DNA from: Clostridia bacterium
GTDB lineage: Bacteria; Bacillota; Peptococcia; Peptococcales; BICA1-8
Length of the DNA: 64,000 bases
Direction of reading: 5' to 3'
Assembly: GCA_030154225.1 (NCBI GenBank)
Contig: JASKKI010000003.1
Coordinates: 14,217 to 78,216 of the forward strand
In this document: positions 4,400 through 58,364 of the stretch, one piece after another
How the letters are laid out: each line of letters starts with the position of its first letter
Numbering within the stretch: position 1 is the stretch's first letter
The notes under the pieces: model-generated
What the model saw: the letters and a program-made list of their open reading frames with translations, nothing else
Database searches by the model: none
What the model was told of the DNA's origin: nothing
Translations under genes and position numbers: made by a program

Positions 4400-4438
4400 C
4401 TTAAATCTCTCCTTTTTCCTTTTGGGTTAAGCTTGTTG

Positions 4439-4569
4439 GTCAGATAACTGCTTAAGGGTTTAGCTTAAGGGTCAGACGCTCAATGTCAACCCAGGTGTAC
4501 GTCAGACGAAACAGCTAGACCAATCAGCCATTGTCAGACGCAAAAATTTAACTACCTGGTATTTCCGAC
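4439..4569. repeat. Phased ~31-bp repeat array 1 (5 units, GTCAGAC cores)
   Basis: Cores start at 4439 (GTCAGAT), 4471, 4501, 4533 (GTCAGAC) and 4563 (TTCCGAC). Spacing is 32/30/32/30 bp. The array lies between the stop of the YwlG-like gene and the start of glyA. Confidence 0.85.
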
Positions 4570-4601
4570 CTACAAAATGTCCCTTAAGATATTGTTAGCA
4601 G

Positions 4602-11096: not shown

Positions 11097-11128
11097 AGGT
11101 TTCCCTTCGCCAGGTTTAGGTTGAGGTT
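11097..11128. repeat. Dispersed intergenic repeat, family E copy
   Basis: AGGTTTCCCTTCGCCAGGTTTAGGTTGAGGTT. Compare 2372-2410. Confidence 0.6.
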
Positions 11129-11189
11129 AAATTGTTACTGATTGTAAGAAGTCAAAAAAGCTAGACATTAATGATGATATGGTTTTTCC

Positions 11190-11209
11190 GGGCACTGGTC
11201 ACTGGGCAC
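11190..11209. repeat. Dispersed repeat, family B (GGGCACTGGTCACnGGGCAC)
   Basis: Matches 24032-24051 at 19/20. It abuts the prmC stop codon at 11211. Confidence 0.75.
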
Positions 11210-11210
11210 A

Positions 11211-23989: not shown

Positions 23990-24031
23990 AGTTATACTGC
24001 ATGATTTATATGATAGTAGATGCCTTTCGTT
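23990..24031. repeat. Right copy of the direct repeat bracketing the radical SAM gene
   Basis: See 22654-22696. It lies 28-70 nt upstream of the radical SAM start codon. Confidence 0.75.
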
Positions 24032-24058
24032 GGGCACTGGTCACCGGGCACTGGTTAC
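24032..24058. repeat. Dispersed repeat, family B copy
   Basis: GGGCACTGGTCACCGGGCACTGGTTAC, 30 nt downstream of the M23 peptidase stop. Confidence 0.75.
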
Positions 24059-24087
24059 GAGACCTAGAAGTTTCCCCATAGAGCTGT

Positions 24088-31031: not shown

Positions 31032-32213
31032 CTATTTTGCTGCCATACTTATTTCTTCATATTTTTCTGTAATTTTTCTCACTCTTATTGGTTTTCCTTC
31101 TTTCATAAAAACCTTTGGTAAAGTTGGACTAATATTAGTTCTCCTTCCTGGCAACTCCACAATTTCACCTATTTTAATATCGGGAATATCCGAAACATCC
31201 AATATTGTCATTTGCATGCCAACCTTACCAATTATGGGAACATACTTGTCCCTAATTTTAACATATGTTTTTACCCGGGAATGATCAAGATAGCGTAATA
31301 TGGTTTTTCCTAAAATTTTTATTAAATCCATAACTCCTCCGGGCCTGGGAATGGGTTCAACGGAAAAACCGTGGGAAAAACCAACAGGAACAATAGCCGT
31401 TTTTGAATTCTTTTTTAGAATATGGGCTCGTTCATAACCTATGGAATGCCCTTTGGGTAGTTCATTAAGATAGGTAATTTGCCCCTTTAAGGCCCAGGCA
31501 TTTATTAATTGGCCATGAAAATCTTGTTTCCCGGCTACCTCTTGCCCATAAAGAATTGTTCCTGCTCTTACCATATCCAGATGCATTTCTGGAAATTTAG
31601 CTAAAGCAGCACTATTACAAATATGTTTCACGGGAATAATAAACCCCTTACTTTCTATAAATTCAATAGCTTTTAAAAACTCACTATATTGTTGCATTGT
31701 AAAAGAGAGATTATCCCACATAGCGGTAGCCAGGTGAGTATAAATTCCCTCTACCTCAATATTTTCATCATTTTTTAACAATCCGACCATCTCATCTAAT
31801 TGGGTATACTTAATCCCGGTACGTCCCAACCCTGTTTCTAACTTAATATGTGTTTTAACCTTTACTCCTTTATCTTTAATAAGTTTAATACTTTTTAAAT
31901 CAGCTAAGCTAACTGTAAGATCAAATTCTTTTATATAGTAGATATCTTCCGGTAAAAATGGACCAAAAACAAGTATAGGAACATTGATCCCTGCTTCCCT
32001 AAGCTGAATGCCTTCACTGATTTCAGTAACTCCCAGGTAATCTATGCCCTGATTTTCTAATTCTCGTGACACTTCAATTATGCCATGACCATAGGCGTCA
32101 GCTTTAACAACACCTAAAATTTTAGTCTCTTCCCGGACAAAATCTCTAACTTTTAGATAATTTTCCTTAATAGCATCTAAATTTATTTCAATCCACTTGT
32201 ACATTCTTATCAC
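31032..32213 (-). CDS. alr: alanine racemase
   Basis: 393 aa with the PLP-lysine motif VVKADAYGHG. Confidence 0.92.
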   Translation of the reverse strand: MIRMYKWIEINLDAIKENYLKVRDFVREETKILGVVKADAYGHGIIEVSRELENQGIDYLGVTEISEGIQLREAGINVPILVFGPFLPEDIYYIKEFDLTVSLADLKSIKLIKDKGVKVKTHIKLETGLGRTGIKYTQLDEMVGLLKNDENIEVEGIYTHLATAMWDNLSFTMQQYSEFLKAIEFIESKGFIIPVKHICNSAALAKFPEMHLDMVRAGTILYGQEVAGKQDFHGQLINAWALKGQITYLNELPKGHSIGYERAHILKKNSKTAIVPVGFSHGFSVEPIPRPGGVMDLIKILGKTILRYLDHSRVKTYVKIRDKYVPIIGKVGMQMTILDVSDIPDIKIGEIVELPGRRTNISPTLPKVFMKEGKPIRVRKITEKYEEISMAAK

Positions 32214-32260
32214 CTCGGTCTAGCTATAGGGTTAGATAAAGCTTACCGGTTTCATTTTCT

Positions 32261-32482
32261 GTCTGACAATACACCCGGGTAAACATCTTTCGTCTGACGT
32301 ACTTCTGGGTAAAGATTTTGCGTCTGACAACTCTTAAGGGTGCATCTTACCTGTCAGACAATTACTCACAGGTTAAACTCTTGTGTCAGACGTAAAAATT
32401 TAACTACCTGGTATGTCTGACCAAAAAGTCTAGCTTTTTAGCTTTGTCTGACGCACAAGCTAGACCCTTTAGTGTTTCTGAC
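32261..32482. repeat. Phased ~31-bp repeat array 2 (8 units, GTCTGAC/GTCAGAC cores)
   Basis: Cores start at 32261, 32292, 32322 (GTCTGAC), 32353, 32385 (GTCAGAC), 32415, 32446 (GTCTGAC) and 32476 (TTCTGAC). Spacing is 31/30/31/32/30/31/30 bp. Confidence 0.88.
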
Positions 32483-32505
32483 CAGCAAGCTTAGCCCAAA
32501 AGAAA

Positions 32506-40333: not shown

Positions 40334-40349
40334 GGTCGATAGTCGATAG
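40332..40349 (+). repeat. Family D repeat TTGGTCGATAGTCGATAG (left, forward copy)
   Basis: A perfect 18-nt inverted match lies at 43064-43081. Confidence 0.85.
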
Positions 40350-40356
40350 TATTCAG

Positions 40357-40414
40357 GAGGCAAGAGGCAAGACTAAATCCTGCTTCCTGTTTCCTGCATC
40401 CTGCTTCTTGCTTG
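40357..40414. repeat. Family C repeat (GCAAGA words) as an imperfect inverted pair
   Basis: GGAGGCAAGAGGCAAGAC ... CTGCTTCTTGCTTG. It abuts the stop codon of the 63-aa gene. Confidence 0.65.
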
Positions 40415-49271: not shown

Positions 49272-49907
49272 TTATTCTGCAAATTCAACCTTAAAACCTA
49301 TTTTCCCGGCTACACCGGCGGACATGTTACTTCTCCATGGTCTCACTTCAAGGGCCTCCCTAAAGGCCTGACCTGCGGCTCGGAAAATGCTTTCCCATTG
49401 ATGGTGCCCATGGTTTGGTCTGGCCTTCATTAAATCGATATGCAGTGTACACTGGGCGCCTTGCACAAAACCCTCCAAAAAGGATACTAAATCTTCGGAA
49501 TGGATACCTTCTGTGGTTTGAGGAATGCTGATGTCATGGAAATTCAAATCTAAAAAGGTCCGATTTTCAAAGCTCAGGACTGCCTGGGCCAATGCTTCAT
49601 CTATGGTAGCTAAGGCAAATCCAAAACCTCTGGCTCCTTGAACAAGTTTCTTTTCCAGCAGCTCTTTGCATGCTCTGCCCAAGGTAATTCCTACATCTTC
49701 ACAAATAACATGGTTTAAAAAAAAGTGATCCAGTTCAACATTAATACCGATATTTAGTTCACTGCGCCAGGCTATCTGTTCAATCATATGATTAAAAAAT
49801 GCCAAAGGTGTATTTATGTTTTTTTTACTTTCAGGGTCCCTCGGCCCATCATCCAGGATAACAATAATTTTTGATTCTAAAGTCTGCCTTTCCACTTTTA
49901 CTTTCAT
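49272..49907 (-). CDS. hisB: imidazoleglycerol-phosphate dehydratase homolog, divergent
   Basis: IGPD-like blocks ERQTLESKI, FFNHMIEQ, LNHVICEDVGITLG, TIDEAL and GHHQWESIFRA. Several canonical residues are altered (see findings). Confidence 0.7.
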   Translation of the reverse strand: MKVKVERQTLESKIIVILDDGPRDPESKKNINTPLAFFNHMIEQIAWRSELNIGINVELDHFFLNHVICEDVGITLGRACKELLEKKLVQGARGFGFALATIDEALAQAVLSFENRTFLDLNFHDISIPQTTEGIHSEDLVSFLEGFVQGAQCTLHIDLMKARPNHGHHQWESIFRAAGQAFREALEVRPWRSNMSAGVAGKIGFKVEFAE

Positions 49908-49949
49908 TTTTACACCACCATTCTATTTGCTATTAGGTTTAACTTTAAG

Positions 49950-50263
49950 GTCTGACATTTGCTTAAGGGTCTAGCTATTGCGTCTGACAACTGCTCATGA
50001 GTTTAGCTTGTATGGCTGACAATTGCTTATACTGCAAGTTTTATGGGTCTGACATACTTCTAGGTCAGTTTATTGCGTCTGACGCAAGCATTGCATGTTA
50101 AAATATTATCAGACGCTCAATGTTCACCAAGATGTATTTCAGACGCAAAATATTCACCCAGAAGTACATCAGACGGAAAATGTTACTCAGAAGTATATCA
50201 GACGCAATATGTTAACCCGTAAGTATTGTCAGACGCAAAATATTCACCAGAAATACGTCCGAC
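49950..50263. repeat. Phased ~31-bp repeat array 3 (11 units) with an orientation switch
   Basis: GTCTGAC-type cores start at 49950, 49982, 50014, 50047 and 50077. TCAGAC-type cores start at 50108, 50138, 50168, 50197, 50228 and 50257. Spacing is 29-33 bp. Confidence 0.9.
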
Positions 50264-50284
50264 CCGAGATTTCAACCCACAAGC

Positions 50285-51574
50285 TCAGCGATTTTCGACC
50301 GCCAGGGCGTGGGTCTCAAAACCTTCTTCCCTGGCAAAAAGGGCCGCCTTATCTCTTACCCTTTTATAGCCTTGTTCAGTAACATAACCTACAGATGAAC
50401 GTTTTAGGAAATCAAAAACCGATACACTGGAATAGGTTTTAGCAAAGCCACCTGTGGGTAAAATGGCATTAGGCCCTAAAAGAAAGTTAGCTAAAGTTAT
50501 GGGAGCATTGTTGCCAAGTAGGATTTCTCCCGCGTTTTTGATTTTAGGTAATACGGCCCAGGGGTCACTGGTCATAATTTCCATGTGTTCCGGTCCATAC
50601 ATATTTACAAAATCTATAGATTGTTCAAGGTTCTCAGTTACAATTACCCCTCCATAACCATTAAATACATTATTTACAAAGTTCTTTCTTTGATCCGAAA
50701 GCTTTACTAATTGCTTTTCAATAATTTGTTTAACTTCTTCAACCAGGCTTTCCACATGGGTAACTAAAAGACTGGCCGAATCGGGACCATGTTCTGCCTC
50801 TATCATTAAATCAAGGGCAACTTTTTTGGCATCAGCAGTTTCATCTGCTAAGATAATAGCTTCACTAGGACCTGCCGGAGGGCCAACATCCAATACACCA
50901 CTTAATAAACGCTTAGCTGCGGTAACATATGAATTACCGGGGCCAATTATTTTACTGCAAGCAGGGATAGTTTCTGTACCGTAGGCGATAGCGGCAACTG
51001 CTTGAATACCACCTACTTTATAAATTTCTTTGACACCTGCCACTTTGGCAGCGGCTAAAACACTATCATCTAAACTCCCTATTGAATTAGGTGGGGTTAC
51101 AATAACAATCCTGGGAACTTGGGCCACAATAGCGGGAATGGCTAACATTAATAATACCGAGGGAAAACTACCTTTACCTCTGGGTACATAAAGACAAACA
51201 TCAGAAATGGGACTGGTTTGTTCTCCTACCATTACACCTGGAACTGTTTCCGTAAACCAGAGGGGTTCCGGCATCTGATGTGTATGAAACTTTTTAATAT
51301 TAGTGGCAGCAAACTCTAAAGTTTCTTTAAATTCTTTACTAATCCTTTCGTAACCAGCATTTATTTCCTCTTCAGTAACCTTTAAAGTTTCCGGTGACAA
51401 TTTAGCTCCGTCAAACTTTTCAGTATAATAACATACTGCCTTATCTCCTTGAGTTTTTACATCATTTATGATTTCCTGGGCAACCTTTAATTGCTCAGTA
51501 ATATCGGTTTCCGCTCTTTTTAATATTTTACCTTTGGTTTTTTCATCGAGCTCTTTCCATTTATAAATATTCAT
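50285..51574 (-). CDS. hisD: histidinol dehydrogenase
   Basis: 429 aa with GPGNSYVTAAKR and IEAEHGPDS. Confidence 0.95.
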   Translation of the reverse strand: MNIYKWKELDEKTKGKILKRAETDITEQLKVAQEIINDVKTQGDKAVCYYTEKFDGAKLSPETLKVTEEEINAGYERISKEFKETLEFAATNIKKFHTHQMPEPLWFTETVPGVMVGEQTSPISDVCLYVPRGKGSFPSVLLMLAIPAIVAQVPRIVIVTPPNSIGSLDDSVLAAAKVAGVKEIYKVGGIQAVAAIAYGTETIPACSKIIGPGNSYVTAAKRLLSGVLDVGPPAGPSEAIILADETADAKKVALDLMIEAEHGPDSASLLVTHVESLVEEVKQIIEKQLVKLSDQRKNFVNNVFNGYGGVIVTENLEQSIDFVNMYGPEHMEIMTSDPWAVLPKIKNAGEILLGNNAPITLANFLLGPNAILPTGGFAKTYSSVSVFDFLKRSSVGYVTEQGYKRVRDKAALFAREEGFETHALAVENR

Positions 51575-56228: not shown

Positions 56229-56249
56229 TTAGGAAAATTTTAAAAAGAC

Positions 56250-56492
56250 AAAACTATGACAGAGAAGAGTAATTGGTAGAATGCTAGCTAAAGAGAGTCG
56301 GTGCTGGTGGAAATCCGATGCTAGGACCCAATGAAGCCACTCTGGAGTGTTGTGTTGAAATATTAAGTAAACAAACCGGCTTCCACCGTTATAGGAAAGT
56401 GATTTGCACTAAGGGGGTCAACTATGACCAACTAGGGTGGTACCGCGTGATAATCTCTCGTCCCTACAATTTATGGGACGGGAGTTTTTTTT
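56250..56492 (+). promoter_or_regulatory. T-box riboswitch leader, alanine (GCC) specifier
   Basis: Stem I GA motif UGACAGAGAAGAGUA; AG bulge AGAGAG with distal GGUGG. Specifier loop GAA-GCC-A with GCC at 56336-56338. T-box sequence AACUAGGGUGGUACCGCG at 56430-56447. Terminator stem 56455-56484 followed by U8. Confidence 0.88.
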
Positions 56493-58175: not shown

Positions 58176-58185
58176 ACTGGCTGCG

Positions 58186-58338
58186 CCGGTTTAGTGGCTA
58201 GTGATGGAGTCTAGATATATTACGTGTGACGGCTATAGGGTTAGTGTGAGAGTGTAAAGAAAAGGCATCAGATGCTATTTCTTACGCACTTTCACACTAA
58301 CACACTGTCACACTTTATGAATACTAGGTACTGATCAA
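58186..58338. repeat. Two family A repeat copies in inverted orientation (long imperfect hairpin between convergent genes)
   Basis: GTTAGTGTGAGAGTGTAAAGAAAAG (58240-58264) faces TATTTCTTACGCACTTTCACACTAAC (58276-58301) around the palindrome GCATCAGATGC. Flanking TAGTGA / ACTAGTCAC words extend the arms. Confidence 0.8.
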
Positions 58339-58364
58339 ATGGGTCTAAGCACTAGTCACGTGAC

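Follow-up and report, generated by a model that had tools for sequence, protein, structure and literature searches.

Interspersed intergenic repeats, among them REP/BIME, BOX and MITEs, are known to affect mRNA stability, the rearrangement of genomes and the quality of their assembly, and for each a dedicated protein partner or mechanism has come to light. BOX, a modular intergenic element from the Firmicute Streptococcus pneumoniae, is arranged as boxA-(boxB)n-boxC with a variable number of internal tandem modules, and its partly complementary ends form a stem-loop. The STAR elements of S. aureus are direct repeats of a GC-rich 14-mer with spacers of ~40 bp, while the mycobacterial MIRUs are VNTRs that carry small ORFs overlapping the flanking genes. 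Arrayed transposase-binding sites are found within transposon ends, as in the TnsB sites of Tn7, the L1-3 and R1-3 sites of Mu and the 19-bp repeats of Tn402/Tn5053. The foldback (FB) elements of Drosophila have long inverted arms comprised of tandem short units (up to 31 bp), which vary in number, and we know of no described bacterial counterpart. The REP/BIME and REPIN sequences of Proteobacteria are abundant, strictly intergenic and frequently intercistronic, species- or clade-specific and hairpin-capable, form composite arrays with regular unit spacing, and are long-lived at orthologous loci (PMC2817692, PMC8049555). Within BIMEs the orientation alternates unit by unit, and each REP unit is a palindrome (PMC2817692).

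We analyzed a 64,000-nucleotide stretch of DNA, hereafter the window, from the metagenome-assembled genome (MAG) of an uncultured "Clostridia bacterium", whose HisD is 100% identical in many subsurface metagenome assemblies. The spacer between hisD and hisB in this window is occupied by an array of ~30-bp units in two arms. T units read ...GGGT...GC followed by GTCTGAC, and A units read GTCAGAC followed by GC...ACCC..., each with a non-core part in one of two flavors, f1 and f2. The features of the locus, in window positions, are as follows.

49272-49907, minus strand: hisB, imidazoleglycerol-phosphate dehydratase, the downstream cistron (Pfam PF00475 IGPD, 7.6e-31)
49908-50284, unstranded: the whole hisD-hisB spacer, one two-armed array of 11 cores, one of which is common to both arms
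49928-50084, plus strand: arm of five T units, ...CTTAAGGGTCTAGCTATTGC followed by GTCTGAC on the plus strand, mostly of flavor f2, adjoining the hisB start (unit HMM segmentation and flavor scores)
50073-50087, unstranded: symmetry center TTGCGTCTGACGCAA, with a single GTCTGAC core common to the innermost unit of each arm (inverted repeat pairs)
50084-50106, plus strand: innermost A unit, with the flank GCAAGCATTGCATGTTAAAATAT
50107-50285, plus strand: arm of six A units, TCAGACGCAAAATrTTCACCCAGAAGTA, of flavor f1
50285-51574, minus strand: hisD, histidinol dehydrogenase, the upstream cistron (Pfam PF00815 Histidinol_dh, 1.5e-149)

The initial annotation had described eleven GTCWGAC-type cores, 29-33 bp apart, that fill a 377-bp gap between hisD (ORF end at 50285) and hisB (start at 49907) and switch orientation once, at the palindrome TTGCGTCTGACGCAA (50073-50087). 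All of this was reproduced. In the T half, GTCTGAC lies at 49950, 49982, 50047 and 50077 and GGCTGAC at 50014; in the A half, xTCAGAC lies at 50108, 50138, 50168, 50197 and 50228 and GTCCGAC at 50257. The remaining his junctions all overlap or are under 40 bp, as had been stated (39 bp or shorter in the gene table), and the description of phased ~30-bp units with conserved sequence between the cores was borne out. Tandem Repeats Finder placed 5 copies with a period of 30 at 50104-50252 and reported another array at 32256-32330. Allowing no more than 3 mismatches, a consensus 20-mer matched at 6 places, which belong to only two of the three window arrays described below, against 0.00 expected from 100 shuffles. 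The autocorrelation peak at a lag of 32 had a z of 6.8 relative to shuffles.

The outermost unit of the A arm is degenerate and abuts the hisD stop codon. At the other end, the f2 arm stops ~25 nt before the hisB ribosome-binding site, GGTGGTG, which lies outside the predicted hairpin discussed below. The motif at the center of the array, AACATGCAATGCTTG on the sense strand, is also present in the his array of a related Bacillota MAG (L007), in a second array from that MAG (L007b) and in L056. One unit, at 50025-50054 (sense GTCAGACCCATAAAACTTGCAGTATAAGCAAT), is atypical in that it has no ACCC box, and it is kept as such in L293 and partly in L007. This unit contains ATGTCA followed after 18 nt by TATAAG, and its L293 counterpart sits directly upstream of the hisB ribosome-binding site; it may be an internal hisB promoter.

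Using a unit HMM, we segmented 80 units from 11 arrays. The unit spacing within an arm was 30.67 ± 0.99 bp (range of 29-32). The unit consensus is TGTCAGACGCAAAATsTTmACCCwkAAGTA, with a single-orientation consensus of TGTCAGACGCAAAATCTTAACCCATAAGTA. Twelve positions are nearly invariant (T3, C4, A5, G6, A7, C8, A14, T17, C21, C22, A27 and G28), A14 being present in 100% of 77 units, and the other positions are variable. It had been suggested that the period places every core on one face of the DNA helix; a spacing of 30.7 ± 1.0 bp would be compatible with this arrangement.

Ten of the 11 arrays contain one switch from T to A units such that the cores face the center, the exception being the L056 array, which has A units only; the reverse order, A to T, was found in 0 of 11. 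In the two-armed arrays, one core at the junction is common to both arms. Since about seven two-armed arrays can be counted as evolutionarily independent, random polarity would produce this layout with a probability of roughly 2^-7. Outside the core, units come in two discrete flavors, f1 (...AAAATGTTCACCCAGAAG) and f2 (...TCAAGCTAGACCCTTAAG), which segregate to opposite arms (permutation p < 0.0002). Systematic differences between the arms lie at positions 15, 16, 19 and 25, and the f1/f2 differences are all transversions. Unit identity was lower between opposite arms (0.58) than between different arrays (0.60) or within the same arm (0.65). Thus, the inverted halves that the initial annotation had recognized do reflect a single orientation switch, but they are not simple inverted copies since the flavors of the arms systematically differ. 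Relative to transcription, the arrays occur in both orientations, f1-to-f2 at his and L103 and f2-to-f1 at femAB-alr, L102 and L178. The outermost units are the most degenerate.

Two further arrays of the same family are present in the window.

4417-4570, unstranded: third, short array of 1-2 T units followed by 3 A units, at the junction of a DUF436 gene and glyA (SHMT)
32205-32505, unstranded: second array of ~6 T units followed by ~4 A units, at the femAB/alr junction, orthologous to the array L054 from BRH_c20a

Matches to the unit HMM across the 64-kb window are confined to the his array and these two intergenic arrays. Elsewhere, another array of the family lies upstream of purC. With the same ~30-bp unit at three intergenic sites of the window, the array is not specific to the his operon. 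A regulator dedicated to that operon, acting through an attenuator or an array of operators, would explain an array inside the his operon but leaves those at DUF436/glyA, at femAB/alr, upstream of purC and elsewhere unaccounted for, and several relatives have no array at hisD-hisB. A degenerate CRISPR array, which the period of ~30 bp superficially resembles, fares no better, and we consider both extremely improbable. What would be its spacers are conserved, the orientation changes within the array, a full period measures ~30 bp and no cas gene was found among the window ORFs scanned or annotated. Here the earlier argument, that conserved sequence between the cores is at odds with CRISPR, holds.

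For the initial annotation, absence of the motif from the rest of the genome and from relatives would have pointed to a neutral local duplication. Instead, besides the three loci of the window, at least six genomes of related uncultured Bacillota carry the unit family, BRH_c20a and BICA1-8 among them. Relatives were retrieved at HisD identities of 76-83%. In Desulfonispora thiosulfatigenes (L010, HisD identity of 73%) the HMM detected no units. Arrays of the family were located in the following.

L007: Bacillota MAG, two loci
L008: further relative
L054 and L056: Clostridiaceae bacterium BRH_c20a
L102: MAG AS01afH2WH_13
L103: Peptococcaceae bacterium BICA1-8
L178: JGI contig

We scanned genome contigs for three phased GTCWGAC cores and metagenome contigs for three phased CGTCTGA. 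Among the matches listed from both scans, the only true members by HMM were from BRH_c20a, BICA1-8, MAG AS01afH2WH_13 and one JGI contig; the remainder were mostly chance matches in high-GC genomes and unrelated repeats at the ends of gut contigs. So far, the family is known only from a small group of uncultured subsurface Clostridia.

Two other repeats were also noted. Metabacillus sp. 84 (L052:6120-6440) carries a tandem array with a ~31-bp period, ~11 copies and two GTCAGAC per unit, in which the unit is GTCAGACAAyGAGGTGAT plus GTCAGACAAGAAT and the flanks are unrelated to the family. Many human-gut metagenome contigs (L130-L249) have ends of ~70 bp that match three phased CGTCTGA but not the unit HMM, probably an unrelated repeat that breaks assemblies.

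We compared the hisD-hisB gap among relatives, across which orthologous outer and inner units are recognizable.

Window: 377 bp, two-armed array
L007: 386 bp, two-armed array
L008: 221 bp, two-armed array
L009 (BRH_c20a): 420 bp, variant-core array
L291: 133 bp, a different repeat family
L293: 118 bp, two A units only, orthologous to window units
L294: 66 bp, no units besides an outer T and an outer A
L292: 58 bp, solo core
L010 (Desulfonispora): 10 bp, no units

The his arrays of the window species (L001) and L007 are colinear unit by unit and have the center motif AACATGCAATGCTTG in common. Fourfold degenerate sites of hisD and hisB are saturated between these two species (identity of 0.19-0.38 versus 0.29 expected). 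In orthologous units the family-conserved positions are 87% identical and the other positions 49%, the latter to be compared with 44% in non-orthologous units. Thus, the information specific to each unit is nearly lost, while the motif is kept. Overall identity is similar in other intergenic regions that could be aligned, for instance the T-box leader described below; one convergent spacer was unalignable. These comparisons show that the motif positions have been maintained between species while other positions approached saturation. The array in the hisD-hisB spacer is real, old and under sequence constraint.

Gain and loss are evident at other junctions. The femAB-alr array is common to the window species and BRH_c20a (FemAB 84% and Alr 66% identical), and at the malic-sucD junction an array is present in L007 and absent from the window species. 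The his and femAB-alr arrays thus each occupy a matching junction in species between which synonymous sites have become saturated. Variation in unit number of the VNTR type, which had been raised as a possibility, was not seen in the his array, as 8 near-clonal assemblies agree in its length and differ by one SNP. By contrast, a different repeat family does show a strain-level indel. The spacer between the fumarase-C and malic enzyme genes is 223 bp in L003 (17199-17421) and L005, from other samples of the same species, versus 48 bp in the window strain, and the additional 175 bp are filled with GGTTACGCTACGCTAGGTTAAGG-type repeats.

Changes have also spread within individual arrays. In the L007 his array the GC beside the core has become TA in four T and two A units, and the other L007 array is unchanged. 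The BRH_c20a his array (L009:11291-11710) has a new core in both arms, GGTCGGCATGACG and CGTCATGCCGAC, with a period of 32-33, and the femAB-alr array of the same organism retains the standard core. A hisH-hisA array in L293 (L293:7578-7904) has the variant core TTGGTTAGTTAA and TTAACTAACAA, again changed in both arms. Both variant arrays, in L009 and L293, retain the two-arm layout, the 30-33 bp period and the parts GTGAACAT and AAGCTAGAC. Arrays thus gain and lose units and are homogenized locally, within each array.

This turnover is what might be expected of neutral, minisatellite-like DNA, in which palindromic tandem arrays emerge and grow by slippage and unequal exchange, in a lineage whose control of intergenic DNA is lax, and no factor recognizes them. 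The homogenization is local to the array (the TA variant is confined to the his array of L007, and L009 and L293 have new cores), divergence is greatest in the edge units, a pattern also seen in satellite arrays, and several other small tandem or inverted repeat families occur in these genomes. However, concerted evolution alone would homogenize all positions, and here 12 are held at 87-100% while the others are near saturation, which argues for a sequence-specific trans-acting factor. In addition, the same unit and its two flavors are found at unlinked loci in at least seven species-level genomes, and array length is stable within species. We judge a purely neutral origin to be improbable.

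Other small intergenic repeat families lie in the window at 2363-2488, 11100-11210, 24030-24060, 40335-40413 and 58176-58364. They are runs of inverted 7-nt sequences (GGGCACT/GGTCACT, AGGTTGA/CCTTAAC, GTCGATA, GAGGCAA...TCCTGCT), often placed just after genes or terminators. The lineage is unusually rich in such DNA.

We then considered RNA structure, since the initial annotation had envisaged the read-through his mRNA folding upon itself. The spacer RNA is predicted to form one hairpin, whose longest pair spans 355 nt, at a free energy of -118.3 kcal/mol (z = -5.8 to -6.1), and in this respect the proposal stands; the mirrored units lack a consistent pairing register, however, and variant-core arrays fold weakly. 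The base of the predicted hairpin lies just past the hisD stop on one side and ~30 nt ahead of the hisB ATG on the other. In the minimum free energy (MFE) structure, the last ~29 nt, which include the hisB ribosome-binding site, are unpaired. As single-stranded DNA the array had a fold z of -4.9. The unlike flavors of the arms limit hairpin complementarity to about half of each unit, and single consensus units do not self-fold (0 to -2.3 kcal/mol versus -20.5 for a REP-like control).

A functional RNA hairpin of the REP/BIME type would block exonucleases or direct processing and so uncouple the hisD and hisB mRNA levels. In its favor, the two-armed arrays are always convergent, and the predicted hairpin of the his array bridges the gap between the hisD stop and a point shortly ahead of the hisB ribosome-binding site. 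MFE z values for the seven larger arrays (-3.5 to -7.4) lie below those of control spacers (-0.4 to -2.3), whereas the short and variant-core arrays (-1.1, -1.7, -2.0 and +0.3) fold no better than controls. Within an array, core changes do affect both arms, namely GC to TA in L007 and new cores in L009 and L293. A covariation test with two orthologues gave twelve double changes, but these reflect one GC-to-TA unit variant spread within the L007 array, and mirrored units are not consistently matched. At 8 positions the two arms differ systematically, in each case by a transversion, so that a helix would contain purine-purine or pyrimidine-pyrimidine clashes, and identity between opposite arms falls under the between-array baseline. 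Furthermore, a helix needs neither an isolated invariant A14 and T17 nor conservation of sequence across species, one-armed arrays exist (L056 and L293 his), and the elements occur in both orientations relative to transcription. We therefore regard the RNA-hairpin reading as rather unlikely.

The position-specific conservation and the spacing of 30.7 ± 1.0 bp could also be those of a non-mobile array of phased sites for a host protein, for example a nucleoid-associated or global regulator such as an Lrp-like wrapping protein whose sites lie approximately three turns apart, and the arrays would then serve the architecture or regulation of the host chromosome. Lrp-type sites are ~30-32 bp apart, and long retention at orthologous junctions would suit such a role. 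Yet no candidate protein emerged, and close relatives differ in presence or absence at the same junction without obvious consequence. Variant cores stand beside standard cores within one genome, and there is no evident reason why a host regulator should require a strict two-arm layout with unlike arms. We consider this unlikely.

Instead, we tentatively favor a reading to which we attach a little less than even weight: a non-autonomous foldback/MITE-like mobile element, or a host-retained descendant of one, whose units are predicted recognition sites for a sequence-specific factor. The fixed phasing, together with two flavors conserved across species, points to recognition by such a trans-acting factor. 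This would most likely be a DNA-binding protein that assembles along the arms at approximately three helical turns per unit. The invariant polarity, unlike arms, both orientations, intergenic dispersal and presence or absence between relatives resemble fused transposon ends, and the two unlike arms would be the counterparts of a transposon's left end and right end, each with its array of transposase sites. On these grounds the element would most likely be foldback- or MITE-like and non-autonomous, or a host-retained descendant, as opposed to a regulator of the his operon, and its origin is probably a non-autonomous mobile element.

Such an element would have to be tolerated within an operon. 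The GTCTGAC core places a TGA in every T unit of the window arrays. Combined with the 29-32 bp spacing, this yields stop codons in all three frames, from either direction of transcription because the layout is strand-symmetric. A scan inside the his array found no sigma-70-like promoter or intrinsic-terminator-like site. Coding potential and MIRU-like ORFs were rejected, as the sense strand contains ORFs of 20-26 aa only. We propose that stop codons in all frames and the lack of promoter- or terminator-like sites may make the array innocuous, and that the bulged mRNA hairpin might close on itself to bring the hisD stop near a free hisB ribosome-binding site.

Some observations weigh against the mobile-element reading. 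The outermost units are the most degenerate, the opposite of the expectation for active transposon tips, and copies within one genome are ~60% alike, showing no sign of recent transposition. At this identity the near-identical dispersed copies that define a MITE or non-autonomous DDE element are lacking. The arrays with a core altered in both arms (L009 his and L293 hisH-hisA), in genomes that have the standard core at other loci, do not sit easily with a single essential protein binding every array. No transposase or RAYT was found among the window ORFs scanned or annotated, and no autonomous copy or trans-acting partner protein was found in the ~250 kb of clade DNA sampled. Alignment of the outer ends and one filled-versus-empty site revealed no convincing target-site duplications or sharp termini, and that sole comparison (L007b versus L001) was not a clean insertion. 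A more specific version, in which the arrays belong to an undescribed system of uncultured subsurface Bacillota and a sequence-specific protein, transposase-like or domesticated and possibly present as two paralogues matching f1 and f2, polymerizes along the sites and pairs the unlike arms, is speculative and we hold it to be somewhat doubtful. If true, this would add a foldback-type element with arrayed arms, the first from bacteria, or else a host-maintained nucleoprotein array of a new kind.

We searched for the identity of the element elsewhere. In Rfam, at gathering and permissive thresholds, the best matches to the array were noise with E values of 1-10, the sole family in the window being a T-box located elsewhere, and the arrays from relatives had no match. 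No similarity was detected by blastn against plasmid and phage collections, and a scan of IMG/VR yielded no true member among 41 pattern matches. Iterons or centromere-like arrays of plasmids and phages were rejected, given the chromosomal housekeeping-gene context and this absence of plasmid or phage similarity. The core does not appear to fit the Spo0A, CtsR, LexA or Tn402-IR motifs. A literature search using sequence strings, organism names and repeat vocabulary returned no description of the family. Thus, the element, which the initial annotation did not recognize, matches no described family in the Rfam, plasmid and phage collections or literature searched, and the ~30-bp two-armed repeat family is apparently undescribed.

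The T-box leader identified by Rfam (131 bits) lies at window positions 56247-56468 on the plus strand, divergent from hisZ, and is conserved in L007 and L009. It precedes genes for a 58-aa ORF, an AsnC-type regulator and a class I/II aminotransferase, the last of which is possibly the missing hisC.

The arrays account for the unusually long intercistronic gaps in these MAGs. They could be mis-called as CRISPR or small ORFs and are usable as lineage markers. Should there be a partner protein or an autonomous copy, the family would represent a new class of element in a poorly known subsurface lineage; if there is neither, it would illustrate cleanly, in a natural setting, how palindromic tandem arrays undergo concerted evolution.

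Finally, we compared the arrays to the known systems. The initial annotation had offered STAR as the nearest analogy. STAR and MIRU do share short conserved units at fixed spacing in intergenic or intercistronic DNA, but the analogy is loose, since STAR consists of direct repeats only, in an unrelated sequence and a different host. The unit sequence, period and orientation all differ from those of STAR. Relative to MIRU, which likewise consists of direct repeats only, the array has two opposed arms, a constant length in 8 assemblies and sense ORFs of 20-26 aa. The arrayed ends of transposons, and MITEs derived from them, share direct repeats within each end, ends that are mutually inverted and a left and right that are similar but non-identical. 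Here, however, each arm has 4-7 evenly phased units, the arms are contiguous with a common central core, no TG...CA tips or target-site duplication were detected and the tips of the array are its least conserved part. FB elements share inverted arms that are tandem arrays of short units, in variable number, but they are eukaryotic, with kilobase-scale arms, and are unrelated in sequence to the array family. In BOX the boxB copies are all direct, whereas the array family has tandem units in both arms, and the sequences are unrelated. With REP/BIME and REPINs the family shares intergenic and often intercistronic positions, regularly spaced composite units, restriction to a clade, the capacity to form hairpins and long persistence at orthologous loci. 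It differs in that its units are non-palindromic, with at most one orientation switch per array (11 arrays), its hosts are Bacillota and no RAYT was found among the window ORFs scanned or annotated. The layout, in which phased non-palindromic units form two unlike arms around a common core, is absent from the bacterial sources searched. Although it fails the defining features of REP/BIME/REPIN and of BOX, it is these elements that the array family works most like.
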